Sequence record: OP168898.1
Strand: one strand, 5' to 3'
Length of the DNA stretch: 64,000 bases
Origin: Escherichia phage ZCEC14
The position numbers and the translations under genes are program-made. Of this stretch, positions 2,916 through 61,049 are shown in pieces. The notes under the pieces were generated by a model, which saw only the letters and a program-made list of their open reading frames with translations, was not told where the DNA came from and searched no databases. Each line of letters begins with the position of its first letter. Within the stretch, counting starts at the first letter, position 1.

Positions 2916-3209
2916 ATGGCCTTAAAAGCAACGGCACTATTTGCCATGCTAGGATTGTCATTTGTTTTATCTCCATCGATTGAAGCGAATGTCGATCCTC
3001 ATTTTGATAAATTTATGGAATCTGGTATTAGGCACGTTTATACACTTTTTGAAAATAAAAGCGTAGAATCGTCTGAACAATTCTATAGTTTTATGAGAAC
3101 GACCTATAAAAATGACCCGTGCTCTTCTGATTTTGAATGTATAGAGCGAGGCGCGGAGATGGCACAATCATACGCTAGAATTATGAACATTAAATTGGAG
3201 ACTGAATGA
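2916..3209 (+). CDS. rI: lysis-inhibition regulator RI (signal-anchor-release protein)
   Basis: 97 aa; N-terminal hydrophobic anchor MALKATALFAMLGLSFVL; matches T4 RI in length and sequence as recalled; SD aggagg. Confidence 0.8.
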   Translation: MALKATALFAMLGLSFVLSPSIEANVDPHFDKFMESGIRHVYTLFENKSVESSEQFYSFMRTTYKNDPCSSDFECIERGAEMAQSYARIMNIKLETE

Positions 3210-3592
3210 AATTCAGCGACTTTTCACAAAGTGGAAAACCTTCGAAGGCAGATGAATACTTAGGTTTATTAATGGCTGCACAAGCTTATTTTCATTCTGC
3301 GCATTTTGAAACTAAAAATTATGCTAGACACAAAGCATACGATTTTATTTTCTCCGAGTTGCCAGATTTGATTGATAAATTTGGTGAACAATATTTGGGG
3401 TATTCTGGTAGAAAATACACACCTTCAATTCCAGATGCCAGTAAACTTCCTACCGACACAATTAAAATGATTGATCGCATATTAGACCAATCTAACAGCA
3501 TTTATAAAGAAATGCCTCCAGCCATCCAAAGCACGATAGATGATATTACTGGAATGTTTTACCAGAGTAAGTATCTTCTTTCCCTCGAATAA
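3206..3592 (+). CDS. hypothetical protein (rI.1 position)
   Basis: 128-aa ORF; ATGA overlap with rI stop. Confidence 0.55.
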
Positions 3593-3596
3593 CATT

Positions 3597-3619
3597 AGTC
3601 TCCTTCGGGAGACTTTTTT
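3597..3619 (+). terminator. intrinsic terminator (UUCG-loop hairpin plus T-run)
   Basis: agtctcc-ttcg-ggagact followed by tttttt. Confidence 0.75.
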
Positions 3620-3629
3620 CATTTTACCG

Positions 3630-3659
3630 GTTTACTTTCCGTTTGAGCTGTGGTATTAT
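3630..3659 (+). promoter_or_regulatory. early sigma70-type promoter
   Basis: -35 GTTTAC 3630-3635, 18-bp spacer, TGgTATTAT -10 at 3654-3659. Confidence 0.7.
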
Positions 3660-3687
3660 ACAACTATCGGATAAAGAGGAGAACATC

Positions 3688-3876
3688 ATGAAAATTGAAG
3701 CACTCAATCAAGAAGGAAATATCTACGTCATCATTAATGGTGATTTTTTCGTCGACATGGATGAAGTTACTAGTGAAGAACTTGTAGAAGTTCTTAAGAA
3801 ACGCTATAGTATGTGTGATGAAGCTGCAACTCATATGGCGTGTGCAATATTCTCTCTTTCATATGTGGTGGAATAA
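3688..3876 (+). CDS. hypothetical protein
   Basis: 62 aa from ATG with SD aagaggag; track ORF 3643 start lies inside the promoter. Confidence 0.5.
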
Positions 3877-4079
3877 TGATTAGTATTGAACAAGCAGATA
3901 AAATTAAAGAATTGGTAGCTTTAATTCGCAAAGCAGATGAGGAACTTAGTGACTTTGCTTGGTTTTCGGCAGGCATTGCAAATAAAGGTATTGAAGAATT
4001 TGAAGCTAAAGTTGATAATGCTGTAGAAGCTTTAGATATGTTTCTTGATGAAATTATCGATCACAATACGAGAGTTTAA
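3876..4079 (+). CDS. small helical protein (xEQxxK family)
   Basis: 67 aa from in-frame ATG; [13 protein letters not shown] motif. Confidence 0.5.
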   Translation: MISIEQADKIKELVALIRKADEELSDFAWFSAGIANKGIEEFEAKVDNAVEALDMFLDEIIDHNTRV

Positions 4080-4081
4080 GT

Positions 4082-4276
4082 ATGCTGACACACGAACAGT
4101 TTGAAAAAATCATTAAATTAGCACGTGATGTTGAAATAGATTCATATCAATTAGCAGTTGAGCATTGTGAAGGATATTCATACGAAGGTATAGCAGCAGC
4201 TAAAAGAGATTTGGATAAATCTAAAGCTAAGTTAGTTCAATATCTTGAAATGATTAGGTGGAATAATGAAAACTGA
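4082..4276 (+). CDS. small helical protein (xEQxxK family)
   Basis: 64-aa ORF; MLTHEQFEKIIKL motif. Confidence 0.5.
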   Translation: MLTHEQFEKIIKLARDVEIDSYQLAVEHCEGYSYEGIAAAKRDLDKSKAKLVQYLEMIRWNNEN

Positions 4277-4439
4277 AAAGCAGATGTTTTTAATGAAGCT
4301 AATTGAAGAATATGCTAATGCAGTTTCTGACTATGAGTGTTCTTCTAGGGAAAGAGGCATAGCTTTTGCAAAGGAAGAAATGAAAATCATGGTTGATGCT
4401 CACACAAAACTCCAGAATTTTATTGAAAACGTCATTTAA
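4266..4439 (+). CDS. hypothetical small protein
   Basis: 57-aa ORF below track cutoff, overlaps upstream stop; codon walk ends at taa 4437-4439. Confidence 0.4.
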   Translation: MKTEKQMFLMKLIEEYANAVSDYECSSRERGIAFAKEEMKIMVDAHTKLQNFIENVI

Positions 4440-4441
4440 TG

Positions 4442-4471
4442 GTTTACAAGTTGGCAAGGTTATGGTATAGT
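4442..4471 (+). promoter_or_regulatory. early sigma70-type promoter inside stem-loop (PeSL-like)
   Basis: -35 GTTTAC 4442-4447, -10 TATAGT 4466-4471; inverted repeat gttggcaag 4450-4458 / cttgccaac 4475-4483. Confidence 0.7.
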
Positions 4472-4499
4472 AATCTTGCCAACTGCCAAGGAGAAGAGA

Positions 4500-4604
4500 A
4501 TGAAAGTTTTGTTTGTTGTGTATGTGATGATTCAATATAATTACCCAATGTTTACTTATAATCTGGTGAACAACATTATTGATATTATTCAAAGGAGCAT
4601 GTAA
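4500..4604 (+). CDS. leader micro-ORF (34 aa)
   Basis: SD aaggag 7 nt upstream of ATG 4500; stop overlaps next ATG (TAATG). Confidence 0.3.
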   Translation: MKVLFVVYVMIQYNYPMFTYNLVNNIIDIIQRSM

Positions 4605-4789
4605 TGACAAGTGAGCAGGCTTTTAAATTAAGAGAATTAATTGAGATGTATAGTAAAGCTGTTCATGCATCAACAGTTATTGATGAATCAGCTTTCTCCG
4701 GACATGCTAATAAGATTAAATACAAAACTCTTATGGAAGAAGCTAAAGTAAATCTTGATTCTTATATTGAAACTTTAATTGGTGAATAA
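4604..4789 (+). CDS. small helical protein (xEQxxK family)
   Basis: 61-aa ORF; SD aaaggag. Confidence 0.5.
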   Translation: MTSEQAFKLRELIEMYSKAVHASTVIDESAFSGHANKIKYKTLMEEAKVNLDSYIETLIGE

Positions 4790-4790
4790 C

Positions 4791-5057
4791 ATGAGCTTTC
4801 CTAAATTAGAAGTAGGCGATTTAGTCTTAACAAAATTGTGGAATGATGCTCAATCAGTAGAAATCTGTCAATATCGTGGAGCAACAGGTAATTTGATGTA
4901 CACGATTTATAACCCAGAAATTTTGTTAGAGTGTCATTTGGAACGCTTTATAAAAGACACCGATAGTATGCCTTATAGTGTATCGATTGTACGTAAATCT
5001 GATACAAAGGAATACTCTAAAATTTTAGAACAAATTCATGCCAATAAAAAGGATTAA
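4791..5057 (+). CDS. hypothetical protein
   Basis: 88 aa from in-frame ATG directly after upstream stop. Confidence 0.5.
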   Translation: MSFPKLEVGDLVLTKLWNDAQSVEICQYRGATGNLMYTIYNPEILLECHLERFIKDTDSMPYSVSIVRKSDTKEYSKILEQIHANKKD

Positions 5058-5058
5058 T

Positions 5059-5589
5059 ATGAAACGATTAGTACTAGAAGTTAGTTCACTTTTTGGTGAA
5101 TTGGCTATAGAAAAAGTAAATAATATGTATCGTTTGACGCAAGAAGACGATATGCTATATTTTACGCCTAGCGAAATTATTCATTTAACCCAAATTGAAA
5201 AACCATACACTGATAAAATTGTAAGCATTAATGATGAGCATAAAATTCATTTTTATTCTTTATGCCCAGGATTTAATATTGAAAGCGAGTCAATATGCTT
5301 ATCAATTAATAATTGGGATAATTTTATAGCTAAGATTAAATATTTCTATTATTCTAATGAAAGAAAACATGGTTTAAAATGGTTTAAAAATTGCAATGCT
5401 ATTATTACTAACGCTTGTAATCAAAATTATGAAACTGTTTTAAATGTATCAAAATGCTATGAAGAGGGAGATGTCTTAACTATTCGTCAATCGGTAAATG
5501 ATGTTAATGTTGTTGTATTAAACAAAGAAGAAGCTGTTTTATTAAAGACTTATCTTGATTCTGTCATTCCAACTATGATTTCAAAGTGA
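5059..5589 (+). CDS. hypothetical protein (duplicated family, copy 1)
   Basis: 176 aa; shares GFNIE(S/D)E and C-terminal YL(D/T)xVxPxM motifs with next ORF. Confidence 0.55.
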   Translation: MKRLVLEVSSLFGELAIEKVNNMYRLTQEDDMLYFTPSEIIHLTQIEKPYTDKIVSINDEHKIHFYSLCPGFNIESESICLSINNWDNFIAKIKYFYYSNERKHGLKWFKNCNAIITNACNQNYETVLNVSKCYEEGDVLTIRQSVNDVNVVVLNKEEAVLLKTYLDSVIPTMISK

Positions 5590-5595
5590 GGAAAT

Positions 5596-6117
5596 ATGTT
5601 TATTTCAAGTGAAAGTGGTTTAATTCGTGTTGAATTTAAAAATGACATCTTCCTTATTCAAGGAGATGATAATATTAAAATGAGTTATGACGAAATTAAG
5701 AAAATTTGTCATGCTCTTGAAAGTCATGGAAAAGTAAATGCTACTATCGATATAGGCGATTTATGGGTGACACTTTATGAAGTATCCGAAGGATTTAACA
5801 TTGAAGATGAAAACAACATCTTAGCTATTGATAAAAGAAGTGATTTGTTTGATGTGTTAAAAGTTTATGAACAGTCAAACGGTGGAAGAAAAGCCGTATT
5901 AATTTATCAAAAACCGCATTCATGTGGAACTGCTTCAATCATTTCAAATATTGAAGATGAAACTGATACTTATATGTGTGTTTTGAAAGCTGGCCGTGAC
6001 CGTCATCCGGATTTTATTTCTATTCGTCAAAACAATGAAGAAATTTCATTATCAAAATCAGAAGCTGAAGCTATGATTAAGTATTTAACAACTGTTACAC
6101 CTTCAATGAAAGGATAA
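5596..6117 (+). CDS. hypothetical protein (duplicated family, copy 2)
   Basis: 173 aa; SD gtgagg; paralogue of 5059-5589. Confidence 0.55.
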   Translation: MFISSESGLIRVEFKNDIFLIQGDDNIKMSYDEIKKICHALESHGKVNATIDIGDLWVTLYEVSEGFNIEDENNILAIDKRSDLFDVLKVYEQSNGGRKAVLIYQKPHSCGTASIISNIEDETDTYMCVLKAGRDRHPDFISIRQNNEEISLSKSEAEAMIKYLTTVTPSMKG

Positions 6118-6119
6118 TT

Positions 6120-6581
6120 ATGATTATTAATGAAAGCTCTTGGCACTATAAATTATTCAAAATGTTTAATGATGAATGGAAACGGCCTAAGACACTATGC
6201 GCGTATTTTTGGTCTATTGTTATTCCTACATTTTTCGTTTCTTTTTTCGGATGTACTATACTCGCAGGTCTAACTATCATCTGTGCAGAAATCATACAGA
6301 AATGGTTTATTTTTGGTAGTTTATGGACTCTTATTCCATCAGCATTTGTACTTGCCATTTTGCTTGTTTTACTTATTATTGGTTCATTTGTTATTCCTGC
6401 ACAACTGCATGAAAAATATAAAGATTATAAATGGAAAAAGGATTATGCTTTACATGTAGAAAATATTGATAGGGCGTATAAAGGTTTACCTCCTATTCAA
6501 CCCAAGAAATCTATTATCGTCGAATTTTTAAAAGCTCGTAAAGCTAAAGTATGTCCTGTTATTGAATATAAGGCTGAATGA
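6120..6581 (+). CDS. membrane protein (about 3 predicted TM helices)
   Basis: 153 aa with long hydrophobic stretches. Confidence 0.55.
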   Translation: MIINESSWHYKLFKMFNDEWKRPKTLCAYFWSIVIPTFFVSFFGCTILAGLTIICAEIIQKWFIFGSLWTLIPSAFVLAILLVLLIIGSFVIPAQLHEKYKDYKWKKDYALHVENIDRAYKGLPPIQPKKSIIVEFLKARKAKVCPVIEYKAE

Positions 6582-7591
6582 TGAAAACAGTAATGAAAAG
6601 CTATTTTGGTAGTCATCTTTATGGAACTTCTACTCCAGAATCTGATGTAGATTTTAAAGAAATCTTTGTTCCTCCTGCTCGCGATATTCTTATCGGAAAT
6701 GTTAAAGAGCATATGAGTAAAAACACTAACAACACATCATCTAAAAACACTAAAGATGATATTGACCATGAACTATACAGTCTTAAGTATTTCTTTAAAT
6801 TAGCAGCAGACGGTGAAACTGTAGCATTGGATATGCTTCACACTCCGCCTGAACTAGTAGTTAAATCTGATTTGCCTGATGTATGGAAATTTATCCAAGA
6901 CAATCGTTCACGGTTTTATACAACTAACATGAAAGCCTATTTAGGATATGTGCGCAAGCAAGCTTCTAAATATGGTGTTAAGGGTTCTCGTTTGGCTGCA
7001 TTGCGTAATGTATTGAAAGTAGTTAATCAAATCCCCGATCAGTGGGTTGATTACCGAGAAGATGGAACACAAGGACAACGTCGTACTAAAATTGTAGATA
7101 TTAAACATCGGCTTCCTGAAAACGAGTTCTGTGAATGGGTATTCCATAACCACGAGAAAACAGGTCCTCAAACGTTCTATACTGTTCTTGGACGTAAGTA
7201 CCAAACCACCTTGTCTTTAATCGAGCTCAAGCAATCTCTGAATAAGCTCGATGCGGAATATGGTGAACGTGCTCGTAAGGCTGAAGCTAATGAAGGTATT
7301 GACTGGAAAGCTCTGAGTCATGCTTATCGCGCAGGGTATCAATTGATGGAAATCTACCAAACAGGTGATTTGGTGTTCCCATTGCGCGAAGCCTCTATCA
7401 TTAAGCTGATTAAAGCCGGTGAATTACCATTTAAAGAAGTTCAAGAACTTCTTGAAGATACTGTTGATTTGGTTGAAGTCCTAGCCATCCAGGCAGCTAA
7501 GAACGGTATGCCTGATAAGGTAGACATGAAGTTCTGGGACAAGTTCGTTGAAGAGGTATATCTTGAAAACCACCGAAGTTATTATAAATGA
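6578..7591 (+). CDS. Pol-beta-superfamily nucleotidyltransferase-like protein
   Basis: 337 aa; N-terminal GSHLYGTSTPESDVDF fits the hG[GS]x9-13Dh[DE]h signature. Confidence 0.6.
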   Translation: MMKTVMKSYFGSHLYGTSTPESDVDFKEIFVPPARDILIGNVKEHMSKNTNNTSSKNTKDDIDHELYSLKYFFKLAADGETVALDMLHTPPELVVKSDLPDVWKFIQDNRSRFYTTNMKAYLGYVRKQASKYGVKGSRLAALRNVLKVVNQIPDQWVDYREDGTQGQRRTKIVDIKHRLPENEFCEWVFHNHEKTGPQTFYTVLGRKYQTTLSLIELKQSLNKLDAEYGERARKAEANEGIDWKALSHAYRAGYQLMEIYQTGDLVFPLREASIIKLIKAGELPFKEVQELLEDTVDLVEVLAIQAAKNGMPDKVDMKFWDKFVEEVYLENHRSYYK

Positions 7592-7593
7592 TA

Positions 7594-7616
7594 GGGAGCC
7601 TTCGGTCTCCCTTTTT
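7594..7616 (+). terminator. intrinsic terminator
   Basis: gggagcc-ttcg-gtctccc hairpin followed by tttttg. Confidence 0.7.
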
Positions 7617-7639
7617 GTTTAAAATGACGTCACAAAGTT

Positions 7640-7669
7640 GTTTACAAGCATAAAGCTTTATGGTACTAT
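7640..7669 (+). promoter_or_regulatory. early sigma70-type promoter
   Basis: -35 GTTTAC 7640-7645, 18-bp spacer, TGgTACTAT -10 at 7664-7669. Confidence 0.7.
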
Positions 7670-7704
7670 ACAACTATCAACTGATGTGGATTTGGGGGAA
7701 TAAA

Positions 7705-7854
7705 ATGAAAACTACGTTAATTGAAGTAAAAAAGTTGATTGACACAGAAGAGATTTCAGCTTGTTTTGAAAATTTCTTAGAAGATGCAACTGAAGATAAC
7801 GCAGTTTATCTCGCTCAGAAAATTATAGAAACATATTTGGAGCAGAATCAATGA
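7705..7854 (+). CDS. small hypothetical protein
   Basis: 49 aa from ATG with leader ggatttgggggaataaaATG; track start 7660 lies in promoter. Confidence 0.4.
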   Translation: MKTTLIEVKKLIDTEEISACFENFLEDATEDNAVYLAQKIIETYLEQNQ

Positions 7855-8114
7855 CAGTTTACGTAGATGTTTTAATGAATCATGGATGGAAACTTCGCGG
7901 TCATCCAACTAAAAATTGTCATATGTTCACTGATGGAGATATTGAAGAGCTTCATGAAATGGCAGAAGCAATAGGAATGAAACGCTCTTGGTTTCAAGAT
8001 AAACGCATTAAACATTATGACTTACACGCGCGCCGCCGCCAAAAAGCCGTAGAACTTGGAGCTGTAGAAGTATCTCGTCGCGAAGCAGTAAAAATTTGGC
8101 GAACATTAAAATAA
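7851..8114 (+). CDS. hypothetical protein
   Basis: 87-aa ORF, ATGA overlap with upstream stop; His/Asp-rich (HPTKNCHMFTD...HYDLH). Confidence 0.5.
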   Translation: MTVYVDVLMNHGWKLRGHPTKNCHMFTDGDIEELHEMAEAIGMKRSWFQDKRIKHYDLHARRRQKAVELGAVEVSRREAVKIWRTLK

Positions 8115-8117
8115 ATT

Positions 8118-8147
8118 GTTTACAGTAGGGTAGTAGTGTGATACTAT
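8118..8147 (+). promoter_or_regulatory. early sigma70-type promoter inside stem-loop
   Basis: -35 GTTTAC, 18-bp spacer, TACTAT -10; flanking inverted repeat agggta/taccct. Confidence 0.65.
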
Positions 8148-8183
8148 TACCCTATCAAAACAAATGTGAAATTGGAGAATAAA

Positions 8184-9152: not shown

Positions 9153-9241
9153 TTCATAAGAGGACTTCTATGACAAAAAGGCAGTTCAGAAATAGATTAT
9201 ATGGACTGCCATTAAAAAGATGACTAGAATTAAACTGGTGA

Positions 9242-9556
9242 ATGGAGGTAGTGATGTTATACTCAAAGGCTCGTGAAATTTACGAAACTAAAATTAAAGA
9301 AGCAGTATTTCAGTTCGCAACGACAATGCGATGGACAAATGACTGGGAGTATTCAAAAAATCATAAGAAGCCCATGGTGACAAGAAAGGCTCATATGTTG
9401 GTGTTAATAGACCGTGAGCAGATTAAAGCCCGAGAAGCCCTCCAGAATCATAAAAAGGCTGCCTTTGAATGGTTTATGGATAACACTGCTCCTGAGACTA
9501 AGAAAGCAGTAAGCGCATGGTTCAGTGGAAAAAATTGTGAAAGAAGTTTCTTTTAG
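9242..9556 (+). CDS. hypothetical protein
   Basis: 104-aa ORF; alternative ATG at 9254 preceded by ggagg. Confidence 0.45.
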   Translation: MEVVMLYSKAREIYETKIKEAVFQFATTMRWTNDWEYSKNHKKPMVTRKAHMLVLIDREQIKAREALQNHKKAAFEWFMDNTAPETKKAVSAWFSGKNCERSFF

Positions 9557-9558
9557 TG

Positions 9559-9588
9559 GTTTACAAGACTGTTCCTCTGTGGTACTAT
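9559..9588 (+). promoter_or_regulatory. early sigma70-type promoter with SD-complementary spacer
   Basis: -35 GTTTAC 9559-9564, -10 TACTAT 9583-9588; spacer ctgttcctc (9569-9577) complementary to gaggaacag (9605-9613) at the SD. Confidence 0.7.
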
Positions 9589-9616
9589 ACAACTATCAAC
9601 TACGGAGGAACAGAAA

Positions 9617-10144: not shown

Positions 10145-10170
10145 CCGCTTTATACCAAGGATGGTATAAT
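10145..10170 (+). promoter_or_regulatory. putative promoter (extended -10 only)
   Basis: TGgTATAAT at 10162-10170; no clear -35. Confidence 0.35.
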
Positions 10171-10199
10171 GGTTCTAAGCCCTTTTAATTGAGATTATT

Positions 10200-10607: not shown

Positions 10608-10614
10608 GGAAAAT

Positions 10615-11505: not shown

Positions 11506-11513
11506 GGAACACC

Positions 11514-12536
11514 ATGAAAACTCGTTCTCAAATTGAAGATATGGTTCGTAATGCCAGCTATACCCGTGATGTTATGACATTTTTGTGTGAAAATAATTTA
11601 GACCCTGATAAAGTTAATCGTGTTATTCATCACTTTAAGTATACGAATAGCAGTGAATGGGTGCGTAATTTTAGTAAAGCAGGGTATATTACACAAATGA
11701 CTGCTCGTGAACAGCTCACCGATTTCTGTAAAACTATTGATTATAAAAATCCTTTGATTGTTCAAGGCGTTGGTCAAAGTAAGGTCGATTTATCATCTGG
11801 ATTTTTCAATCCAAATCATTATCGTATTGAATGGAGATTTATTGCTCTGTTCCGTAGACAATTAAAGCAAATTTTGTCTACTGCTAGTCGATTAAAAGGC
11901 TCTGATATTAACTTAAAGAATCTGAAATTTGATGGTTATACTCTTCAGATGGAAGTAAGACCGTTAAAAGAAAATAATAGAACTGCGCGAATTAGCTTTA
12001 AACCTAATACAAAAAATTCTCTTTCAATTTGTGAATGCCTTAAATCGCAGTTGACAGAAGCATTTAAGTATATGGATGTTGTTGCTGCTGTTCAATCTAA
12101 GATTTTACCTCGTTTTGAGCGAAATTGGGAACATACAACAACATATGAACTTGATATGATCGTTTCATTTAAATACGATTTTTTGAGAAAGGACGAAGTC
12201 ACACAAGAGAAAAAGCAGGAAGTGCAAGATAACTTAAATTTATCCAATTACTCATCAAACGATCCTAAATTTTGGATGTATAGTTCAGGTAATAAAGATG
12301 CATGGAAATTCAATAAAGTGAATTTTCTTCCTATTGAAAATCCGAGTCTTAAACCTGTTGAAAAATGGCATGCAGATGCGATTGAGAAGTCTATCAAGGC
12401 AGTAGATGATGAACTCGTTGAAGCAACTAATGAAGTGTTAGAAGCTGAAAAGGTGTTAGAAAAAGCTCAAGAAAAAGTCAAAAATCTCACGAAGCAACGT
12501 TCTAAACTGAACAATGCACTAAATGCACTGAACTAG
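11514..12536 (+). CDS. coiled-coil-tailed paralogue family protein (copy 2)
   Basis: 340 aa; SD aagga; RRQLKQILSTASRLKGSD motif; Glu/Lys-rich heptad-like C-terminus. Confidence 0.6.
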   Translation: MKTRSQIEDMVRNASYTRDVMTFLCENNLDPDKVNRVIHHFKYTNSSEWVRNFSKAGYITQMTAREQLTDFCKTIDYKNPLIVQGVGQSKVDLSSGFFNPNHYRIEWRFIALFRRQLKQILSTASRLKGSDINLKNLKFDGYTLQMEVRPLKENNRTARISFKPNTKNSLSICECLKSQLTEAFKYMDVVAAVQSKILPRFERNWEHTTTYELDMIVSFKYDFLRKDEVTQEKKQEVQDNLNLSNYSSNDPKFWMYSSGNKDAWKFNKVNFLPIENPSLKPVEKWHADAIEKSIKAVDDELVEATNEVLEAEKVLEKAQEKVKNLTKQRSKLNNALNALN

Positions 12537-12565
12537 TTTACTTTACCACAAGGATGTGGTATAAT
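12536..12565 (+). promoter_or_regulatory. early sigma70-type promoter
   Basis: -35 GTTTAC 12536-12541, 18-bp spacer with ccaca/tgtgg repeat, -10 TATAAT 12560-12565; near-identical copy at 56227. Confidence 0.7.
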
Positions 12566-15767: not shown

Positions 15768-15889
15768 ACCCTGGTGGGCGGCTAGATGGGAAACTGTAGA
15801 GCCAGAGCCGGAAGAACCGGTTTACACTGATGAAGAAACAGTATATAATGAACCAACGATAAATGACTTAATTGATATGGAGATGGGAC

Positions 15890-19642: not shown

Positions 19643-19644
19643 TT

Positions 19645-20349: not shown

Positions 20350-20379
20350 GTTTACAACAAGTTCAAACCGTGGTATTAT
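20350..20379 (+). promoter_or_regulatory. early sigma70-type promoter
   Basis: -35 GTTTAC 20350-20355, 18-bp spacer, TGgTATTAT -10 at 20374-20379. Confidence 0.7.
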
Positions 20380-20586: not shown

Positions 20587-20872
20587 AACGTATCGTCGTA
20601 AAGACTTAAAAGTGCGTGATTATGACTATTTCGGAAAGCGTAAAGCTCCTGATGGTGTAAGTCATAAAGATATGGTTGAAAACATTTTTCGCTCAGATAA
20701 ATGGCGTAGAATGAAAGGCATTGATTCAGAAGTTAAAGATGAGTTAAATCGTCAATTACGCGGTGAAGTAAGAAAGTTGAAAAAATCAGTTTACATTGAC
20801 GATGATTTTGATTATAATACTTCTCAACGAGTTGCTAAACGTAAATCAAACGAGTGTTATCGTTACAGCTGA
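20579..20872 (+). CDS. hypothetical basic protein
   Basis: 97 aa from in-frame ATG of track ORF 20534-20872; Lys/Arg-rich. Confidence 0.45.
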   Translation: MGKTYRRKDLKVRDYDYFGKRKAPDGVSHKDMVENIFRSDKWRRMKGIDSEVKDELNRQLRGEVRKLKKSVYIDDDFDYNTSQRVAKRKSNECYRYS

Positions 20873-28177: not shown

Positions 28178-28183
28178 TTTATA

Positions 28184-34400: not shown

Positions 34401-34430
34401 GTTTACATCCCTGTTCTTCCATGGTACTAT
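34401..34430 (+). promoter_or_regulatory. early sigma70-type promoter with SD-complementary spacer
   Basis: -35 GTTTAC 34401-34406, -10 TACTAT 34425-34430; spacer ctgttcttcc pairs with ggaggaacac (34446-34455). Confidence 0.7.
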
Positions 34431-34458
34431 ACAACTATCAACTACGGAGGAACACAAA

Positions 34459-38700: not shown

Positions 38701-40128
38701 GTGGTAGAAATTATTCTTTCTCATCTCATATTTGATCAAGCTTATTTTTCAAAAGTTTGGCCATATATGGATTCAGAATATTTTGAAAGTGGTCCAGCTA
38801 AAAATACATTCAAATTAATTAAATCTCATGTCAATGAGTATCATAGCGTTCCATCTATTAATGCGTTAAATGTTGCATTAGAAAATAGTTCATTTACTGA
38901 AACAGAATATTCTGGTGTAAAAACACTTATTTCAAAACTAGCTGATTCTCCGGAAGACCACAGTTGGTTAATAAAAGAAACAGAAAAATATGTTCAGCAA
39001 AGGGCGATGTTTAATGCTACGTCTAAAATAATCGAAATTCAAACTAATGCTGAGCTTCCTCCGGAAAAACGAAATAAGAAAATGCCGGATGTTGGTGCTA
39101 TTCCTGACATCATGCGTCAAGCATTATCAATTTCATTTGATAGTTACGTTGGTCATGATTGGATGGATGACTACGAAGCACGTTGGCTATCTTATATGAA
39201 TAAAGCGCGTAAGGTTCCATTTAAACTCAAAATTCTAAACAAAATTACTAAAGGCGGAGCTGAAACTGGAACACTGAATGTTTTAATGGCTGGTGTTAAC
39301 GTTGGTAAGTCATTAGGATTGTGTTCATTAGCAGCAGATTATTTGCAGCTCGGACATAATGTTCTTTACATTTCCATGGAAATGGCAGAAGAAGTCTGTG
39401 CTAAACGTATTGACGCTAATATGCTTGATGTTTCTCTTGATGACATTGATGATGGGCATATTTCTTACGCTGAGTATAAAGGAAAAATGGAAAAATGGCG
39501 TGAGAAATCTACTCTCGGTCGTTTAATCGTTAAACAGTATCCTACTGGCGGAGCAGATGCTAATACATTTCGATCACTTTTAAACGAATTGAAGCTCAAA
39601 AAGAATTTTGTTCCAACAATCATTATTGTCGACTATCTAGGTATTTGTAAATCTTGCCGCATCAGAGTTTATTCAGAAAATAGTTACACAACTGTTAAAG
39701 CTATTGCAGAGGAATTGCGTGCTTTGGCTGTTGAAACCGAAACTGTTCTTTGGACTGCAGCACAGGTTGGTAAACAAGCTTGGGACTCTTCCGATGTTAA
39801 CATGAGCGATATTGCAGAATCTGCCGGTCTTCCAGCAACAGCCGATTTTATGCTTGCAGTCATTGAAACCGAGGAGTTAGCAGCTGCTGAACAACAACTC
39901 ATTAAGCAAATCAAATCACGATATGGCGATAAGAACAAATGGAATAAGTTTTTGATGGGTGTTCAAAAAGGAAATCAGAAATGGGTAGAAATTGAACAAG
40001 ATTCTACTCCAACTGAAGTGAGTGAAGTAGCAGGTTCACAACAGATTCAGGCTGAGCAGAATCGCTATCAAAGAAATGAATCCACTCGAGCTCAGTTAGA
40101 TGCTTTGGCAAATGAATTAAAATTTTAG
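38701..40128 (+). CDS. 41: replicative DNA helicase gp41
   Basis: 475 aa; DnaB-family motifs; GTG start after SD aaggag. Confidence 0.9.
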   Translation: MVEIILSHLIFDQAYFSKVWPYMDSEYFESGPAKNTFKLIKSHVNEYHSVPSINALNVALENSSFTETEYSGVKTLISKLADSPEDHSWLIKETEKYVQQRAMFNATSKIIEIQTNAELPPEKRNKKMPDVGAIPDIMRQALSISFDSYVGHDWMDDYEARWLSYMNKARKVPFKLKILNKITKGGAETGTLNVLMAGVNVGKSLGLCSLAADYLQLGHNVLYISMEMAEEVCAKRIDANMLDVSLDDIDDGHISYAEYKGKMEKWREKSTLGRLIVKQYPTGGADANTFRSLLNELKLKKNFVPTIIIVDYLGICKSCRIRVYSENSYTTVKAIAEELRALAVETETVLWTAAQVGKQAWDSSDVNMSDIAESAGLPATADFMLAVIETEELAAAEQQLIKQIKSRYGDKNKWNKFLMGVQKGNQKWVEIEQDSTPTEVSEVAGSQQIQAEQNRYQRNESTRAQLDALANELKF

Positions 40129-40157
40129 TTTACAAGCTGACAAGACTATGGTATAGT
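40128..40157 (+). promoter_or_regulatory. early sigma70-type promoter inside stem-loop
   Basis: -35 GTTTAC 40128-40133, -10 TATAGT 40152-40157; inverted repeat caagacta/tagtcttg. Confidence 0.7.
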
Positions 40158-40186
40158 AGTCTTGTTGGTTAAATGAGGAGATTGTT

Positions 40187-40615: not shown

Positions 40616-40645
40616 GTTTACAAGCTGATAGAGTTGTGTTATAGT
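40616..40645 (+). promoter_or_regulatory. early sigma70-type promoter inside stem-loop
   Basis: -35 GTTTAC 40616-40621, -10 TATAGT 40640-40645; inverted repeat gctgataga/tctatcagc. Confidence 0.7.
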
Positions 40646-40676
40646 AATTCTATCAGCTAATCGCGGAGAAAAGAAA

Positions 40677-40931
40677 ATGATGCTAGTTAATAGAGAATAT
40701 CAGTTTAAATCAGAAGAAGATTTGGAAAAATTCGCAAGTGGTTGTGAACTGAATAGACGCACAGCTAAAGTCATAGGATTAAAACCCTTTACAGTTCTAG
40801 ATTGTGAAGTTTCTAAATTCCGCAGAGGGTGTTCTATTAGCGGTCATGCTCTGGTTGATGGGAACACATTTTTCTTTGTTTTTAGCGTCAGAGAACTTTT
40901 ATTGATTAACGAACTTGAGGAAATAAAATAG
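40677..40931 (+). CDS. hypothetical protein
   Basis: 84-aa ORF. Confidence 0.5.
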   Translation: MMLVNREYQFKSEEDLEKFASGCELNRRTAKVIGLKPFTVLDCEVSKFRRGCSISGHALVDGNTFFFVFSVRELLLINELEEIK

Positions 40932-40960
40932 TTTACTTTTGTTGGAAATTGAGATACTAT
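40931..40960 (+). promoter_or_regulatory. early sigma70-type promoter
   Basis: -35 GTTTAC 40931-40936, 18-bp spacer, -10 TACTAT 40955-40960. Confidence 0.65.
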
Positions 40961-43991: not shown

Positions 43992-44021
43992 GTTTACTTT
44001 CCAAAATGAGTATGGTATAAT
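43992..44021 (+). promoter_or_regulatory. early sigma70-type promoter
   Basis: -35 GTTTAC 43992-43997, 18-bp spacer, TGgTATAAT -10 at 44016-44021. Confidence 0.7.
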
Positions 44022-46099: not shown

Positions 46100-46129
46100 G
46101 TTTACTTTCCTTCCTAACGATGATATGAT
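46100..46129 (+). promoter_or_regulatory. early sigma70-type promoter
   Basis: -35 GTTTAC 46100-46105, 18-bp spacer, TGaTATGAT -10 at 46124-46129. Confidence 0.55.
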
Positions 46130-46155
46130 AGCTTCTGAAGTATACGGAGGCTATC

Positions 46156-46779
46156 ATGATTATTAATCTTGTAGATGTTGAACAGTTATCTATAAAAGCT
46201 GAAAGTGTTGATTTTCAATATGATATGTATAAAAAGGTCTGTGAAAAATTTACTGACTTTGAACAGTCAATTCTTTGGCAATGTATGGAAGCCAAAAAGA
46301 ATGAAGCTCTTCATCAGCAGTTGAATAAAATCATTAAAAAGCATTTAACTAAATCACCTTATCAGCTATATCGTGGTATATCAAAATCGACAAAAGAACT
46401 CATTAAAGATTTACAAGTCGGAGAAGTGTTTTCAACGAACAGGGTAGATTCATTTACTACTAGTTTGCATACAGCGTGTTCTTTTTCTTATGCCGAATAT
46501 TTCACTGACACAATACTTCGCTTAAAAACTGATAAAGCTTTTAATTACTCTGACCATATCAGCGATATTATACTTTCTTCTCCTAATACTGAGTTTAAGT
46601 ACACGTATGAAGATACTGATGGATTAGATTCAGAACGTACTGATAACTTAATGATGATTGTACGTGAACAAGAATGGATGATTCCAATTGGAAAGTATAG
46701 AATAACTTCTATTTCAAAAGAAAAATTACACGATTCATTTGGAACATTTAAAGTTTATGATATTGAGGTAGTTGAATGA
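46156..46779 (+). CDS. modB: ADP-ribosyltransferase ModB
   Basis: 207 aa; R-S-E ART motifs YRG, STN and EQEWMIP. Confidence 0.75.
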   Translation: MIINLVDVEQLSIKAESVDFQYDMYKKVCEKFTDFEQSILWQCMEAKKNEALHQQLNKIIKKHLTKSPYQLYRGISKSTKELIKDLQVGEVFSTNRVDSFTTSLHTACSFSYAEYFTDTILRLKTDKAFNYSDHISDIILSSPNTEFKYTYEDTDGLDSERTDNLMMIVREQEWMIPIGKYRITSISKEKLHDSFGTFKVYDIEVVE

Positions 46780-47434: not shown

Positions 47435-47464
47435 GTTTACAAACTGAAGTAAAAATGTTATAGT
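47435..47464 (+). promoter_or_regulatory. early sigma70-type promoter
   Basis: -35 GTTTAC 47435-47440, 18-bp spacer, TGtTATAGT -10 at 47459-47464. Confidence 0.65.
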
Positions 47465-51061: not shown

Positions 51062-51091
51062 GTTTACTTCCTCGGTTAGTTGTGGTATTAT
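51062..51091 (+). promoter_or_regulatory. early sigma70-type promoter
   Basis: -35 GTTTAC 51062-51067, 18-bp spacer, TGgTATTAT -10 at 51086-51091. Confidence 0.7.
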
Positions 51092-51118
51092 AACACCATA
51101 GCTACTGAGGATAATAAA

Positions 51119-52157: not shown

Positions 52158-52187
52158 GTTTACAAACTCTTGGGACCAGAGTATAAT
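52158..52187 (+). promoter_or_regulatory. early sigma70-type promoter inside stem-loop
   Basis: -35 GTTTAC 52158-52163, -10 TATAAT 52182-52187 flanked by gggacc/ggtccc. Confidence 0.7.
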
Positions 52188-52231
52188 GGTCCCGTGGAGT
52201 ATAAAATCTTTTTAACAAGTGAGAGATAACT

Positions 52232-54409: not shown

Positions 54410-56227
54410 ATGATTAAGAATGAAATTAAAATTCTGAGCGATATTGAACATATCAAAAAGCGTAGCGGCATGTACATTGGCTCTTCAGCTAATGAAATGC
54501 ATGAGCGCTTTCTGTTTGGTAAATGGGAAAGTGTTCAGTATGTACCTGGTCTTGTTAAGCTTATTGATGAAATTATCGATAACTCAGTAGATGAAGGTAT
54601 TCGTACTAAGTTTAAATTCGCAAATAAAATTAATGTTACTATCAAAAACAATCAAGTAACAGTTGAAGATAACGGTCGTGGTATTCCACAAGCGATGGTT
54701 AAAACACCTACCGGTGAAGAAATTCCTGGTCCTGTTGCTGCGTGGACTATTCCAAAAGCAGGTGGTAACTTTGGTGATGATAAAGAACGCGTCACTGGCG
54801 GTATGAATGGTGTTGGTTCTAGTTTGACAAACATTTTTTCTGTGATGTTTGTTGGTGAAACTGGCGACGGTGAAAATAATATTGTAGTTCGTTGTTCAAA
54901 TGGCATGGAAAATAAATCATGGGAAGATATTCCTGGAAAATGGAAAGGAACCCGTGTTACTTTCATTCCTGATTTTATGTCATTTGAAACTAATGAGCTG
55001 TCCCAAGTTTATCTTGACATTACACTAGATCGTCTCCAGACACTTGCTGTTGTTTATCCTGATATTCAATTTACCTTTAATGGTAAAAAGGTTCAGGGCA
55101 ATTTTAAGAAATATGCACGCCAATATGATGAGCATGCTATCGTTCAAGAACAAGAAAATTGTTCTATTGCGGTTGGTCGTTCACCGGATGGTTTTCGTCA
55201 ATTAACATACGTGAATAACATTCATACTAAGAATGGTGGCCATCACATTGACTGCGTTATGGATGATATTTGTGAAGACCTTATTCCACAAATCAAACGT
55301 AAGTTCAAAATTGATGTAACTAAAGCACGCGTTAAAGAATGTTTGACTATCGTTATGTTTGTTCGTGATATGAAAAACATGCGATTTGATTCTCAAACTA
55401 AAGAGCGTTTGACTTCTCCATTTGGCGAAATTCGTAGTCATATTCAACTTGATGCTAAAAAGATTTCACGTGCTATTCTAAATAATGAAGCGATTTTGAT
55501 GCCGATTATTGAAGCTGCTTTGGCTCGTAAATTGGCGGCAGAAAAAGCAGCAGAAACTAAAGCAGCTAAAAAGGCTTCTAAAGCTAAGGTTCATAAACAT
55601 ATTAAAGCGAATCTTTGTGGTAAAGATGCTGATACTACTCTTTTCTTGACTGAGGGTGATTCTGCTATCGGATATCTTATTGATGTTCGTGATAAAGAAC
55701 TTCACGGTGGTTATCCATTGCGTGGTAAAGTTCTTAATAGCTGGGGTATGTCTTATGCCGATATGCTTAAAAACAAAGAACTGTTTGATATTTGCGCAAT
55801 CACTGGATTAGTTCTTGGTGAAAAAGCCGAAAACTTGAATTATCATAATATTGCAATTATGACTGATGCTGACCATGATGGTCTAGGAAGCATTTATCCT
55901 TCTCTGCTCGGATTTTTTAGTAATTGGCCAGAACTGTTTGAACAAGGAAGAATTCGTTTTGTCAAAACTCCTGTAATCATCGCTCAGGTCGGTAAAAAAC
56001 AAGAATGGTTTTATACAGTCGCTGAATATGAGAGTGCCAAAGATGCTCTACCTAAACATAGCATCCGTTATATTAAGGGACTTGGCTCTTTGGAAAAATC
56101 TGAATATCGTGAGATGATTCAAAACCCAGTATATGATGTTGTTAAACTTCCTGAGAACTGGAAAGAGCTTTTTGAAATGCTCATGGGAGATAATGCTGAC
56201 CTTCGTAAAGAATGGATGAGCCAGTAG
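54410..56227 (+). CDS. 39: DNA topoisomerase II large subunit gp39, uninterrupted
   Basis: 605 aa from ATG; GyrB-like ATPase and Toprim motifs in one continuous ORF. Confidence 0.9.
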   Translation: MIKNEIKILSDIEHIKKRSGMYIGSSANEMHERFLFGKWESVQYVPGLVKLIDEIIDNSVDEGIRTKFKFANKINVTIKNNQVTVEDNGRGIPQAMVKTPTGEEIPGPVAAWTIPKAGGNFGDDKERVTGGMNGVGSSLTNIFSVMFVGETGDGENNIVVRCSNGMENKSWEDIPGKWKGTRVTFIPDFMSFETNELSQVYLDITLDRLQTLAVVYPDIQFTFNGKKVQGNFKKYARQYDEHAIVQEQENCSIAVGRSPDGFRQLTYVNNIHTKNGGHHIDCVMDDICEDLIPQIKRKFKIDVTKARVKECLTIVMFVRDMKNMRFDSQTKERLTSPFGEIRSHIQLDAKKISRAILNNEAILMPIIEAALARKLAAEKAAETKAAKKASKAKVHKHIKANLCGKDADTTLFLTEGDSAIGYLIDVRDKELHGGYPLRGKVLNSWGMSYADMLKNKELFDICAITGLVLGEKAENLNYHNIAIMTDADHDGLGSIYPSLLGFFSNWPELFEQGRIRFVKTPVIIAQVGKKQEWFYTVAEYESAKDALPKHSIRYIKGLGSLEKSEYREMIQNPVYDVVKLPENWKELFEMLMGDNADLRKEWMSQ

Positions 56228-56256
56228 TTTACTTTACCACAAGGATGTGGTAAAAT
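56227..56256 (+). promoter_or_regulatory. early sigma70-type promoter
   Basis: -35 GTTTAC 56227-56232, 18-bp spacer, -10 TAAAAT 56251-56256; near-identical to promoter at 12536. Confidence 0.65.
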
Positions 56257-60503: not shown

Positions 60504-60533
60504 GTTTACATACCACAAGGACCGTGGTACTAT
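60504..60533 (+). promoter_or_regulatory. early sigma70-type promoter
   Basis: -35 GTTTAC 60504-60509, 18-bp spacer with ccac/gtgg repeat, TGgTACTAT -10 at 60528-60533. Confidence 0.7.
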
Positions 60534-60991: not shown

Positions 60992-61021
60992 GTTTACAAG
61001 ACTGTTCCTCTGTGGTATTAT
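60992..61021 (+). promoter_or_regulatory. early sigma70-type promoter with SD-complementary spacer
   Basis: -35 GTTTAC 60992-60997, -10 TATTAT 61016-61021; spacer ctgttcctc (61002-61010) complementary to gaggaacag (61038-61046). Confidence 0.7.
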
Positions 61022-61049
61022 TACCCTATCAACTACGGAGGAACAGAAA

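Follow-up and report, generated by a model that had tools for sequence, protein, structure and literature searches.

Early promoters of phage T4 are of the UP/-35/TGn/-10 type and early transcripts extend into downstream genes (PMC2988021), and the consensus of the T4 early -35 is GTTTAC (PMC1524935). For the hyperplastic regions of T4-type phages, composite early-promoter/stem-loop elements (PeSLs) have been published (Arbiol 2010, PMC2839356), and in the commonest subclasses of phi1/RB49 the stem-loop lies between -35 and -10 or overlaps the -10 (PMC2839356). PeSLs were extended to the T4/PST pair with a promoter consensus of TTTACW-N17-TAYWAT (Comeau 2014, PMC4122927), and according to the T4/PST figure legend the stem-loops are situated 'just upstream of the promoter' and follow the consensus AGNA-loop-TCNT (PMC4122927). 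Hairpins are also known from the T4 genes e, soc, 49 and I-TevI, where SD and/or AUG are held in a helix with a promoter in its 5' strand, so that long read-through transcripts are untranslatable and transcripts begun inside the helix are translated (PMC3014915). The embedded promoter is in these cases a late one (gp55, TATAAATA), which delays translation until late in infection. Finally, CT-rich anti-SD motifs inside sigma-54 promoters have been described as translational insulators (Levy et al., bioRxiv 10.1101/086108); there, a pyrimidine-rich promoter segment pairs with the downstream SD and silences read-through expression, as demonstrated by experiment.

We compared these systems with a stretch of 64,000 nucleotides from Escherichia phage ZCEC14 (OP168898.1), called the window in the following. 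It represents a Tequatrovirus early region with 98.5% identity to phage BMB16, is ~94% identical to many Tequatrovirus genomes and about 94-96% identical to T4, with which it is colinear. Searching the window for GTTTAC-N18-TANNNT gave 21 matches, all on the + strand, which is the coding strand, and none on the opposite strand; dinucleotide shuffles led to an expected mean of 0.80 and a maximum of 4 matches, which establishes the motif. The homologous T4 region contains 22 strict motif matches, likewise with none on the opposite strand, and 19 of the 21 promoters have T4 orthologs on the same strand, where orthology means correspondence of strict-motif sites, the T4 GenBank record carrying no promoter or terminator features. 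All 21 sites also fit the TTTACW-N17-TAYWAT consensus. A preliminary description of this DNA had counted at least 19 promoters with GTTTAC, an 18-bp spacer and a TGn-extended -10; hexamers and spacing could be confirmed for 21, but TG at -15/-14 is found in only 17 of them. A generic sigma-70 scan was not discriminating in this AT-rich genome (72 matches vs 63 in shuffles), and the T4-specific GTTTAC pattern is the only discriminating promoter pattern here.

The sites are positioned 5' of early genes in the tk-nrdC-43-41-dda-39-rII-52 region, with an upstream stop codon -1 to 74 nt before the -35 and an SD-ATG downstream, the exceptions being the intragenic sites 15820 and 20789. The SD-ATG follows 25-44 nt 3' of the -10 in 20 of the 21 cases and 61 nt at 20789. 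Neither of these two has TGn, and with their location within coding sequence they may be minor promoters or chance matches. The 25 nt upstream of the -35 have a mean A+T of 0.72 compared to 0.656 +/- 0.089 for random 25-mers, a modest shift. Consensus, strand and orthologous positions are all shared with canonical T4 early promoters and the promoter part shows no difference, whereas the reviews (PMC2988021, PMC1524935) are silent on overlapping hairpins. We consider it probable (about 0.7), as one explanation together with the read-through roles proposed below, that the 21 sites are early promoters of the canonical sigma-70 type in a T4-like (Tequatrovirus) phage and that roughly half of them are overlapped by PeSL-type RNA hairpins. 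Because early promoters and PeSLs have already been described for this phage group, the main value of the analysis is the annotation of the 21 promoters and their hairpins.

Two kinds of overlapping hairpin were distinguished. Class A (4442, 8118, 40128, 40616 and 52158) comprises hairpins of 13-15 bp centred on the -10, and in class B (9559, 60992, 34401, 51062 and 46100) an anti-SD segment lies in the spacer or the -10. The 21 sites, all on the + strand, are as follows.

3630..3659, +: early promoter, T4 P58780 ortholog, upstream of mobD.5; no overlapping hairpin; preceded by a canonical terminator (3596-3619).
4442..4484, +: early promoter (4442-4471) with class A hairpin centred on the -10 (arms 4449-4463 / 4470-4484, 15 bp, -24.5 kcal/mol); T4 P57990 ortholog, upstream of mobD.2.
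7640..7669, +: early promoter, T4 P55384 ortholog, driving two ORFs (about 7705-8114) absent from T4; terminator upstream (7594-7616).
8118..8155, +: early promoter (8118-8147) with class A hairpin (arms 8125-8138 / 8142-8155, 14 bp, -20.9 kcal/mol), the -10 lying within the 3' arm; no T4 counterpart; right end of a 458-bp insertion before nrdC.10.
9559..9613, +: early promoter (9559-9588) with class B hairpin (-27.6 kcal/mol), in which the spacer CTGTTCCTCTGTGGT (9569-9583) pairs with ACTACGGAGGAACAG (9599-9613), containing the nrdC.8 SD.
12536..12565, +: early promoter upstream of nrdC.4; stop codon TAG overlaps the -35; mini-hairpin CCACA-AGGA-TGTGG inside the spacer.
15820..15849, +: motif match without TGn in the T4 49.1 coding sequence, upstream of pin; doubtful or minor promoter.
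20350..20379, +: early promoter, T4 P41706 ortholog, located before 55.6, without a strong hairpin.
20789..20818, +: motif match without TGn in the T4 55.5 coding sequence; doubtful or minor promoter.
34401..34454, +: early promoter (34401-34430) with imperfect class B hairpin (34412-34425 / 34441-34454, 13 bp, -16.2 kcal/mol), which takes in the SD of an ORF of 84 aa that T4 lacks; the counterpart T4 P27080 keeps the 5' arm and has a different leader.
40128..40170, +: early promoter (40128-40157) with class A hairpin (40135-40149 / 40156-40170, 15 bp, -18.9 kcal/mol), upstream of dmd; the gene 41 stop codon overlaps the -35.
40616..40658, +: early promoter (40616-40645) with class A hairpin (40623-40636 / 40645-40658, 14 bp, -18.3 kcal/mol), in a 329-bp promoter-plus-ORF insertion absent from T4.
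40931..40960, +: early promoter, T4 P20109 ortholog, upstream of sp; no hairpin; borders the 40594-40924 insertion on its right side.
43992..44021, +: early promoter upstream of mrh.2; no overlapping hairpin; preceded by a canonical terminator (43956-43981).
46100..46164, +: early promoter (46100-46129) with class B hairpin (19 bp, -20.8 kcal/mol), in which the -10 region (46119-46137) pairs with SD and AUG of modB (46145-46164).
47435..47464, +: early promoter upstream of srd; no hairpin.
51062..51111, +: early promoter (51062-51091), T4 P8218 ortholog, with class B hairpin (51069-51086 / 51095-51111, 17 bp, -23.7 kcal/mol) that includes the motB.2 SD GAGGA.
52158..52200, +: early promoter (52158-52187), located before motB, with class A hairpin (52166-52178 / 52187-52200, 13 bp, -23.7 kcal/mol).
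56227..56256, +: early promoter upstream of rIIA.1; -35 and spacer identical to 12536, -10 different at one position.
60504..60533, +: early promoter, T4 P167086 ortholog, after denB; no strong hairpin; an ORF insertion of 202 bp comes next, with its junction at ggagaataaaatg.
60992..61046, +: early promoter (60992-61021) with class B hairpin (61002-61016 / 61032-61046, 15 bp, -23.2 kcal/mol), upstream of ndd.4; paralogous copy of the 9559 cassette.

The four inverted repeats quoted in the preliminary description, 4442-4483 (GTTGGCAAG/CTTGCCAAC), 40141-40164 (CAAGACTA/TAGTCTTG), 40624-40657 (GCTGATAGA/TCTATCAGC) and 52172-52193 (GGGACC/GGTCCC), are all present where it had placed them. Its generalization that many -10 regions are bracketed by such repeats applies to the five short-loop repeats among the 21 promoters; in a further five, it is the SD or AUG of the next gene to which the spacer or -10 is paired, but 11 have no such hairpin, so that a hairpin is unnecessary for promoter function. 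The enrichment itself withstood comparison with shuffled sequence, the test on which the preliminary description had made its claim depend. The longest stretch of the 18-nt spacer with a perfect complement in the 45 nt 3' of the -10 had a mean length of 5.81 compared to 4.45 +/- 0.20 for spacer shuffles, 4.44 when the spacer of one promoter was paired with the downstream region of another, and 4.65 at random positions. Arms of at least 8 nt were found at five promoters (0.14 expected; maximum 2 in 2000 shuffles), and hairpin z-scores relative to dinucleotide shuffles were below -2.5 in 10 of the 21. An MFE of -18 kcal/mol or lower was reached by nine promoters (43%) compared with 5.1% of random windows and 1.6% (1/61) of the other SD-ATG gene starts (Fisher p = 8.5e-6 vs promoters). 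Among 87 non-redundant promoters from all T4-like loci collected, 28% fold at <= -18, with many unrelated arm sequences.

That the pairing is maintained by selection is indicated by a class A alignment, in which 98% of the cells are paired and both sides have changed in 8 of 15 pairs; its score was reached by none of 500 shuffles, and slid controls were paired in 26-64% of cells. The loci were collected with DNA patterns in which the arms were given as N and from diverged phage genomes, and the alignment takes in paralogs noticed because they fold, which introduces an ascertainment bias. A protein-guided Dmd search of viral contigs returned only 5 near-identical loci, uninformative for covariation. 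At the 4442 orthologs a pair series of G-C, G-U and A-U was observed, with a compensatory G-C to A-T change relative to T4. The hairpins are moreover asymmetric between the strands, as established by a mean sense-minus-antisense MFE of -7.1 kcal/mol against a background of -2.1 +/- 4.05, and the stems of the hairpin promoters contain 2-5 G-U pairs each. Within the 5' arm of class B, the variation consists of C/T opposite G. None of the 10 hairpins is followed by a U-tract (0-2 T in 8 nt; 4 at 46100), and a terminator scanner flagged only 46124-46158 among them, yet detected the nearby canonical terminators. Compensated sense-strand RNA structures lacking a U-tract go slightly beyond what the literature searched describes for these elements.

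From sigma-70 geometry, transcription would be expected to start ~7 nt 3' of the -10. The 5' arm of the hairpin would then lie upstream of the start, and the hairpin would form only in transcripts reading through from an upstream promoter. Class A hairpins are located directly 3' of the upstream stop codon and leave the next SD free; SD and AUG are not paired in the helix, and the predicted probability of both being unpaired is 0.57 in read-through RNA and 0.55 in the promoter's own transcript. The upstream stop is at most 11 nt away at 9 of the 10 hairpin promoters compared with 3 of the 11 others (p = 0.0075), and the three promoters preceded by a canonical terminator (3630, 7640 and 43992) all lack an overlapping hairpin; 8 of the 21 have neither (10 hairpin, 3 terminator). 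Class A may therefore be an intercistronic RNA element, either a stabilizer of the upstream 3' end or an attenuator of read-through, that would take the place of the canonical terminator where intergenic room is smaller. As a U-tract is missing, this presumed role is the weakest step of the proposed explanation.

In class B the 5' arms also sit upstream of the assumed +1, and here SD and AUG are affected: their predicted probability of being unpaired is 0.14 in read-through RNA vs 0.45 in the promoter's own transcript, with the exception of 9559, where the prediction gives the SD no better access in the promoter's own transcript (0.18 vs 0.18). Duplexes of a spacer with its own TIR at <= -12 kcal/mol were found for 7 of 34 promoters compared with 2.9% of non-paralogous cross-pairs (p = 5e-5), a conservative result because two strong Mosigvirus class B sites were left out, and spacer-shuffle z-scores in three genera were -2.7, -6.6 and -3.5. 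The design recurs across genera with unrelated arms, namely in Mosigvirus (L066: 20707, 33605 and 27579) and Jiaodavirus (L067: 37813, 37513 and 20483), and every occurrence of the leader GGAGGAACA is accompanied by a complementary spacer. The core helix at modB (46100) is conserved in Mosigvirus and Jiaodavirus; no covarying pair was detected in the cross-genus alignment, which consequently adds conservation only. The imm.1 locus of T4 and of several metagenomic relatives combines a retained 5' arm with a leader that is not complementary to it, so the class B hairpin is dispensable there. Weaker class B spacers pair about equally well with the TIRs of other genes, and the class B signal is in part a generic one, CT-rich spacers being complementary to SD sequences in general.

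The class B geometry is that of the hairpins at T4 e, soc, 49 and I-TevI, except that the promoter inside the 5' arm is an early instead of a late one. The next gene would be poorly translated from read-through RNA, which would tie its synthesis to its own early promoter and hence to the immediate-early period, as opposed to the delay until late infection in the T4 cases. Since the embedded promoters are sigma-70 early promoters, class B is at most a variant of the e/soc/49 type of translational gating, and such a relationship is possible; nrdC.8, ndd.4, motB.2 and modB are not among the known hairpin-gated T4 genes in the literature searched. The sigma-54 insulators share the principle of a promoter segment pairing with the downstream SD but belong to another organism and sigma factor, consist of 3-5 nt motifs compared with the helices of 13-19 bp reaching beyond the SD here, and were demonstrated experimentally, whereas the evidence for class B comes from sequence. 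By analogy, the anti-SD/anti-AUG arm might form a promoter-embedded translational insulator that folds away the next RBS, so that only RNA from the local promoter is translated, a tentative proposal to which we give less than an even chance. If it is true, synthesis of modB, motB.2, nrdC.8 and ndd.4 would be limited to the first minutes of infection despite continued read-through transcription of these genes. A functional anti-SD arm would then explain how immediate-early proteins, toxic ADP-ribosyltransferases included, cease to be made while read-through goes on, and would provide compact promoter/insulator parts for synthetic biology. No description of SD occlusion at early promoters was found in the T4 reviews and PeSL papers searched, and a search for maps of T4 transcription starts or terminators was likewise negative; the hairpins may already be described in older print literature. 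An anti-SD arm encoded by ~1/4 of the promoters goes slightly beyond the literature searched.

Pairing might also be a mere by-product of promoter consensus and composition, with conserved TGTGG/TACTAT segments and CT-rich spacers meeting purine-rich SDs. Such an origin would agree with the behaviour of the weaker class B spacers, with the only slightly weaker average pairing of spacers with foreign TIRs (-6.07 vs -6.69) and with a G-rich plus strand that favours G-U pairing, as seen in the background asymmetry of -2.1. Nevertheless, the composition-keeping cross-pairing and spacer-shuffle nulls are still exceeded, 8 of the 15 class A pairs show double compensatory changes, pairing collapses in the slid controls, the arms reach 5-9 nt past the SD core and differ among loci and genera, and such a hairpin is formed at just one of the 61 SD-ATG gene starts elsewhere in the genome. 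This reading is largely refuted and very improbable. We regard as equally remote an action at the DNA level, be it a cruciform or single-stranded hairpin aiding melting (cf. N4 virion-RNAP), an endonuclease VII target or a palindromic operator through which a dimeric repressor would shut off early promoters. The repeats do bracket or include the -10, which is the melting region, and how early promoters are shut off is, according to PMC3014915, incompletely understood. The 2-5 sense-strand G-T pairs, however, become A-C mismatches on the other strand, and the antisense folding, weaker by 7.1 kcal/mol, disfavours a symmetric cruciform. As arm sequences differ completely between promoters while pairing is kept, the repeats share no operator sequence; loops that are 15-33 nt long and reach to the SD, as in class B, would make no sense for melting or an operator, and half of the equally strong-looking promoters have no repeat at all. 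Cruciform, hairpin-promoter and operator were thus rejected on strand asymmetry and the lack of an arm sequence in common.

The published PeSL model, in which the stem-loops are terminators or attenuators and the cassette is primarily a mobile recombination module shuffling ORFs, including via mini-circles, deserves more weight than either of these, but we still consider it rather unlikely as an account of the overlapping hairpins. In its favour, termination at one RB49 stem-loop was about as efficient as at rrnB T1 and PeSL mini-circles were detected (Arbiol 2010, PMC2839356), PeSLs were found near T4/PST indels including the ndd.4/.5 locus, which lies in this window (Comeau 2014, PMC4122927), and the hairpins directly 3' of stop codons are where a terminator is expected. 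With no U-tract in any of the ten and one flagged by the scanner, their sequence led us to reject the overlapping hairpins as intrinsic terminators, and as sense-strand RNA hairpins without a U-tract they call into question the label 'terminator' for T4-type elements. Nor does the model account for the fact that in three genera it is specifically the SD or AUG that the 3' arms of class B cover. As for mobility, segments of 30-100 bp comprising promoter and leader have matches of 77-100% identity at other loci (for example the 9559/60992 cassette, the 12536/56227 spacer and the leader ACAACTATCAACT), near-identical ones are separated by as much as 51 kb, and arms have been uncoupled by crossovers in the conserved loop. 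These segments may be the short homologies at which some gene cassettes were gained or lost. The comparison of cassette junctions with T4 proposed in the preliminary description gave two insertions flanked by promoters on both sides (7713-8172 and 40594-40924) and three further events with one junction each in a promoter cassette, yet the link is modest: 5 of 21 indel or replacement events touch a promoter (junction within about 75 bp), and a promoter interval from -30 to +80 takes in 4 events compared with 1.35 expected (marginal p = 0.045, against a uniform null). Of the events away from promoters, eight are homing-endonuclease or intron differences. By a rough estimate this is no more than expected at gene boundaries, ~1/4 of which carry a promoter. 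Junctions lie in SD-ATG/leader microhomology, in 'TTATTGAT' or in the hairpin loop, sparing the stems, and events are no more frequent at hairpin promoters than at hairpin-less ones.

Taken as an identification of the elements themselves, the PeSL interpretation is essentially right, and the observation was largely already known. The match claimed in the preliminary description is borne out by motif, hairpin enrichment, selection on pairing, AT-rich upstream sequence and placement, but falls short in that fewer than half of the promoters carry a hairpin. Like PeSLs, the sites combine a strong sigma-70-like promoter, AT-rich upstream sequence and an SD-ATG between genes, in a subset also a stem-loop, are concentrated in variable regions and in a few cases adjoin indels, and the ndd region of the window is one of the published T4/PST examples. 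The T4/PST legend fits the canonical terminators before 3630, 7640 and 43992 but not the hairpins bracketing the -10 or covering the SD; the missing U-tract, the 11 promoters lacking an overlapping hairpin and the occlusion of SD or AUG, absent from the published description, are further differences. The modules also resemble lambdoid morons as small, independently promoted gene cassettes between conserved genes; morons, however, have no flanking conserved regulatory repeats and often a divergent G+C, whereas the cassettes here have promoters and leaders in common and do not deviate in composition from the remaining genome.

The window is the classic T4 early/middle region, transcribed from the + strand. 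Bases 3000-12000 share 98.5% identity with Escherichia phage vB_EcoM_BMB16 and about 94% with hundreds of Tequatrovirus genomes, and T4 is colinear with the whole window in reverse orientation, the genes running from vs/tk, rI, nrdC, 49, nrdD and 55 through 47-46-45-44-62-regA-43, 42, uvsX, 41, 61, dda, 39, rIIA and rIIB up to gene 52. The preliminary description of at least 19 promoters with GTTTAC, an 18-bp spacer and an extended TGn was borne out by a scan with GTTTAC-N18-TANNNT, which gave 21 matches (named here by the first base of the -35), all on the + strand (0.80 expected; shuffle maximum 4), 17 of them with TG at -15/-14. An SD-ATG follows 25-44 nt beyond the -10 in 20 of the 21 and after 61 nt at 20789. 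Sites 15820 and 20789, both intragenic and without TGn, are doubtful. Strict matches in the homologous T4 region number 22, all on that same strand (0 on the other), and T4 orthologs exist for 19 of the window promoters. With GTTTAC as the T4 early -35 consensus (PMC1524935) and UP/-35/TGn/-10 as the early promoter type (PMC2988021), the promoter part is a canonical T4 early promoter.

Inverted repeats at these promoters, for which a comparison with shuffled sequence had been proposed, are indeed enriched. With 5' arms allowed only in the 18-nt spacer and 3' arms only in the 45 nt beyond the -10, the longest perfect complement averaged 5.81 over the 21 promoters, compared with 4.45 ± 0.20 for spacer shuffles, 4.44 for spacers cross-paired with other promoters' downstream sequence and 4.65 at random positions; arms of ≥8 nt occurred at five promoters (0.14 expected). 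Folding of 75-nt RNAs gave z < -2.5 against dinucleotide shuffles at 10 of 21 promoters, and nine fold at ≤ -18 kcal/mol, compared with 5.1% of random windows and 1 of 61 other SD-ATG gene starts of the window (Fisher p = 8.5e-6). The hairpins either bracket the -10 (class A) or pair the spacer/-10 with the SD or AUG of the next gene (class B):

4442, 8118, 40128, 40616, 52158; + strand; class A hairpins of 13-15 bp, centred on the -10
9559, 60992, 34401, 51062, 46100; + strand; class B hairpins, 5' arm in the spacer or -10 region
3630, 7640, 43992; + strand; canonical GC-rich terminator with T-run upstream, no overlapping hairpin

The class A 3' arm ends about 12 nt beyond the -10 and leaves the SD free; that of class B lies over the next gene's SD, and at 46100 over SD and AUG. 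The remaining eight promoters have weak or no structure. All four inverted repeats quoted in the preliminary description lie exactly where it placed them and belong to class A; its statement that many -10s are bracketed needs qualifying, as it holds for the five class A promoters, while five more are of class B and eleven have no such hairpin.

Both designs recur, with unrelated arms, in a Mosigvirus and a Klebsiella Jiaodavirus, in whose homologous regions strict promoters lie on the coding strand without exception (arm pairs over the SD are, for example, TTCTCCAGTAGTTG/CAACTACTGGAGAA and TTCTCCTCTGGTT/AACCAGAGGAGAA). Duplexes between spacer and translation initiation region are stronger than with spacer shuffles in the three genera (z -2.7, -6.6 and -3.5), and 7 of 34 own pairs reach ≤ -12 kcal/mol, compared with 2.9% of non-paralogous cross-pairs (p = 5e-5). 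Pooling of all fetched loci gave 87 non-redundant promoters, of which 28% fold at ≤ -18, about 15 being class A-like and 13 class B-like.

A single family of paralogous hairpin promoters, 4442, 40128 and 40616, was aligned together with the T4 orthologs and relatives from metagenomes, the relatives having been retrieved with a pattern that placed no constraint on the arms. In this alignment, some paralogs of which had been noticed by their folding, the 15-bp helix is 98% paired with 8 of 15 pairs altered on both sides; the observed covariation was reached by 0 of 500 shuffles, and slid partners are 26-64% paired. A single pair runs through G-C, G-U and A-U among the 4442 orthologs alone. Stems contain 2-5 G-U pairs each, the mean stability advantage of sense over antisense RNA is 7.1 kcal/mol (genome background 2.1 ± 4.05), and in the class B family C/T variation in the 5' arm faces G, all of which points to sense-strand RNA elements. 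A DNA cruciform or operator is disfavoured by the G-U pairs, the strand asymmetry and arm sequences that have nothing in common between promoters. A U-tract after the stem was sought at the ten hairpins and found at none, and a terminator scanner that detects the true terminators nearby flags only 46124-46158 among the overlapping hairpins.

What these RNA hairpins may do we infer throughout from sequence. If transcription starts about 7 nt beyond the -10, as assumed from sigma-70 geometry, a promoter's own transcript would lack the 5' arm, and the hairpin would form only in RNA reading through from upstream; early T4 transcripts do extend into downstream genes (PMC2988021). Consistent with a read-through role, the hairpin is absent at the terminator-shielded promoters 3630, 7640 and 43992, and an upstream stop lies ≤11 nt away at 9 of 10 hairpin promoters compared with 3 of 11 others (p = 0.0075). 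In class B, SD and AUG are predicted to be unpaired with a probability of 0.14 on read-through RNA and of 0.45 on the own transcript, except at 9559 (0.18 in both); because of this lower predicted accessibility, class B hairpins may keep the next gene from being translated when it is carried on read-through RNA. Experiments have established the same logic for T4 e, soc, 49 and I-TevI, whose 5' strand holds a late promoter (PMC3014915), and it applies to the CT-rich anti-SD insulators of sigma-54 promoters (bioRxiv 10.1101/086108). Class A shows no such difference (0.57 and 0.55) and would more likely serve as intercistronic punctuation, as a 3'-end stabiliser or attenuator, which is the most tentative of these suggestions.

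The interpretation as promoter-early stem-loops (PeSL) proved essentially right. As in PeSL (Arbiol 2010, PMC2839356; Comeau 2014, PMC4122927), an AT-rich upstream region, promoter and SD-ATG are combined, at ten of the promoters also with a stem-loop between -35 and -10 or over the -10; copies are conserved, some near indels, and are concentrated in variable regions, with none in the conserved replication cluster at 20.8-34.4 kb. T4/PST stem-loops are described as immediately preceding the promoter and having the consensus AGNA-loop-TCNT (Comeau 2014, PMC4122927), which is matched here by the canonical terminators, e.g. AGGActcc-ttcg-ggagTCCT before 43992; unlike them, the overlapping hairpins lack terminator features. 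The element belongs to a kind already on record for this phage group, which has been studied very thoroughly. Only the anti-SD class may be new: SD occlusion is not mentioned in the published PeSL description, and no account of it was found in the T4/PeSL literature searched, although older T4 literature may contain one.

Compared with T4, the window shows 21 indel or replacement events, and in five of these a junction is about 75 bp or less from an early promoter. Two are insertions with promoters on both flanks:

7713-8172; insertion with two ORFs
40594-40924; insertion with one ORF

Joins fall in short shared sequences (ggagaataaaATGAAAACT at 7640/8118, ggagaataaaatg at 60504, TTATTGAT at 40616); that at 34401 lies inside the conserved loop ACAACTATCAACT and therefore left an orphan 5' arm in T4. 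Arms are uncoupled in the metagenomic set as well: CTGTTCYTCY spacers precede one of three different leaders, while every GGAGGAACA leader comes with a complementary spacer. Junctions in promoter cassettes are marginally enriched (4 events where a uniform null predicts 1.35, p = 0.045), by a rough estimate no more than would follow from indels falling at gene boundaries, about 1/4 of which have a promoter. Promoters thus supply recombination homologies in some events, but a special mobility of cassettes in the proposed mosaic is no more than a possibility, favoured by the flanked insertions and weakened by the marginal enrichment. In six further insertions of 140-445 bp, small ORFs near tk, mobD, 49/pin, nrdH, 55 and 39.1/goF, neither junction carries a strict early promoter, so small-ORF turnover also proceeds without promoter cassettes:

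1327-1694, 4615-5061, 16324-16465, 19627-19952, 21823-22077, 53705-54078; insertions relative to T4
17559-17562, 18838-18858, 23637-23662, 43056-43077, 43635-43666, 36238-37185, 5614-6577; homing-endonuclease or intron-type differences

The latter type accounts for eight of the 21 events and is unrelated to early promoters: the nrdD intron with I-TevII (1035 bp), mobC (601 bp), mobB (861 bp), an 899-bp dam-gene 61 segment and segF (659 bp) are absent, and the segA/beta-gt and mobD regions hold different sequence. Also absent are 1117 bp at gene 39 (mobA, gene 60.1 and the 39/60 split with its 50-nt translational bypass; junction ~55827-55892), so that gene 39 is unsplit and the topoisomerase large subunit is a single 606-aa ORF (54407-56227).

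Packing of gene ends and promoters is extreme. At four promoters the TAG stop of the upstream gene, gene 41 in one case, reaches into the first base of the -35 (TAGTTTAC); the stop ends 2 nt before the -35 at 4442, 9559, 40616 and 52158 and 3 nt before it at 8118. A leader, (A/T)(C/A)(A/C)(A/C)CTATCAACT, directly 3' of the -10 and initially transcribed, is common to at least six promoters; its conservation exceeds known promoter needs by far, and it is the segment of arm exchange between cassettes.

12534-12541, 40126-40133, 40929-40936, 56225-56232; stop/-35 overlaps
7670-7690, 9589-9605, 34431-34447, 60534-60550, 61022-61038; + strand; shared CTATCAACT leader

Two loci 44 kb apart, 12536-12565 before nrdC.4 and 56227-56256 before rIIA.1, have the same -35 and spacer, GTTTAC-TTTACCACAAGGATGTGG. 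This spacer, which holds the mini-hairpin CCACA-AGGA-TGTGG, recurs at two loci of the Jiaodavirus (14647 and 29229 in that sequence), one copy with a single change, and as a variant at 60504 of the window. Of the 61 control gene starts only one has a strong hairpin (28183-28219, 16 bp, AAGAGATTATGCTTTA / TTAGAGTATAATCTCT, -19.4 kcal/mol). This hairpin encloses a MotA-box middle-promoter-like site, TTATGCTTTA-N11-TATAAT at 28189-28217, stops 2 nt short of the gene 45.2 ortholog's SD, ACGGAGG, and is similar to the promoter-middle stem-loop (PmSL), reported only from Vibrio phage nt-1 (Comeau 2014, PMC4122927).
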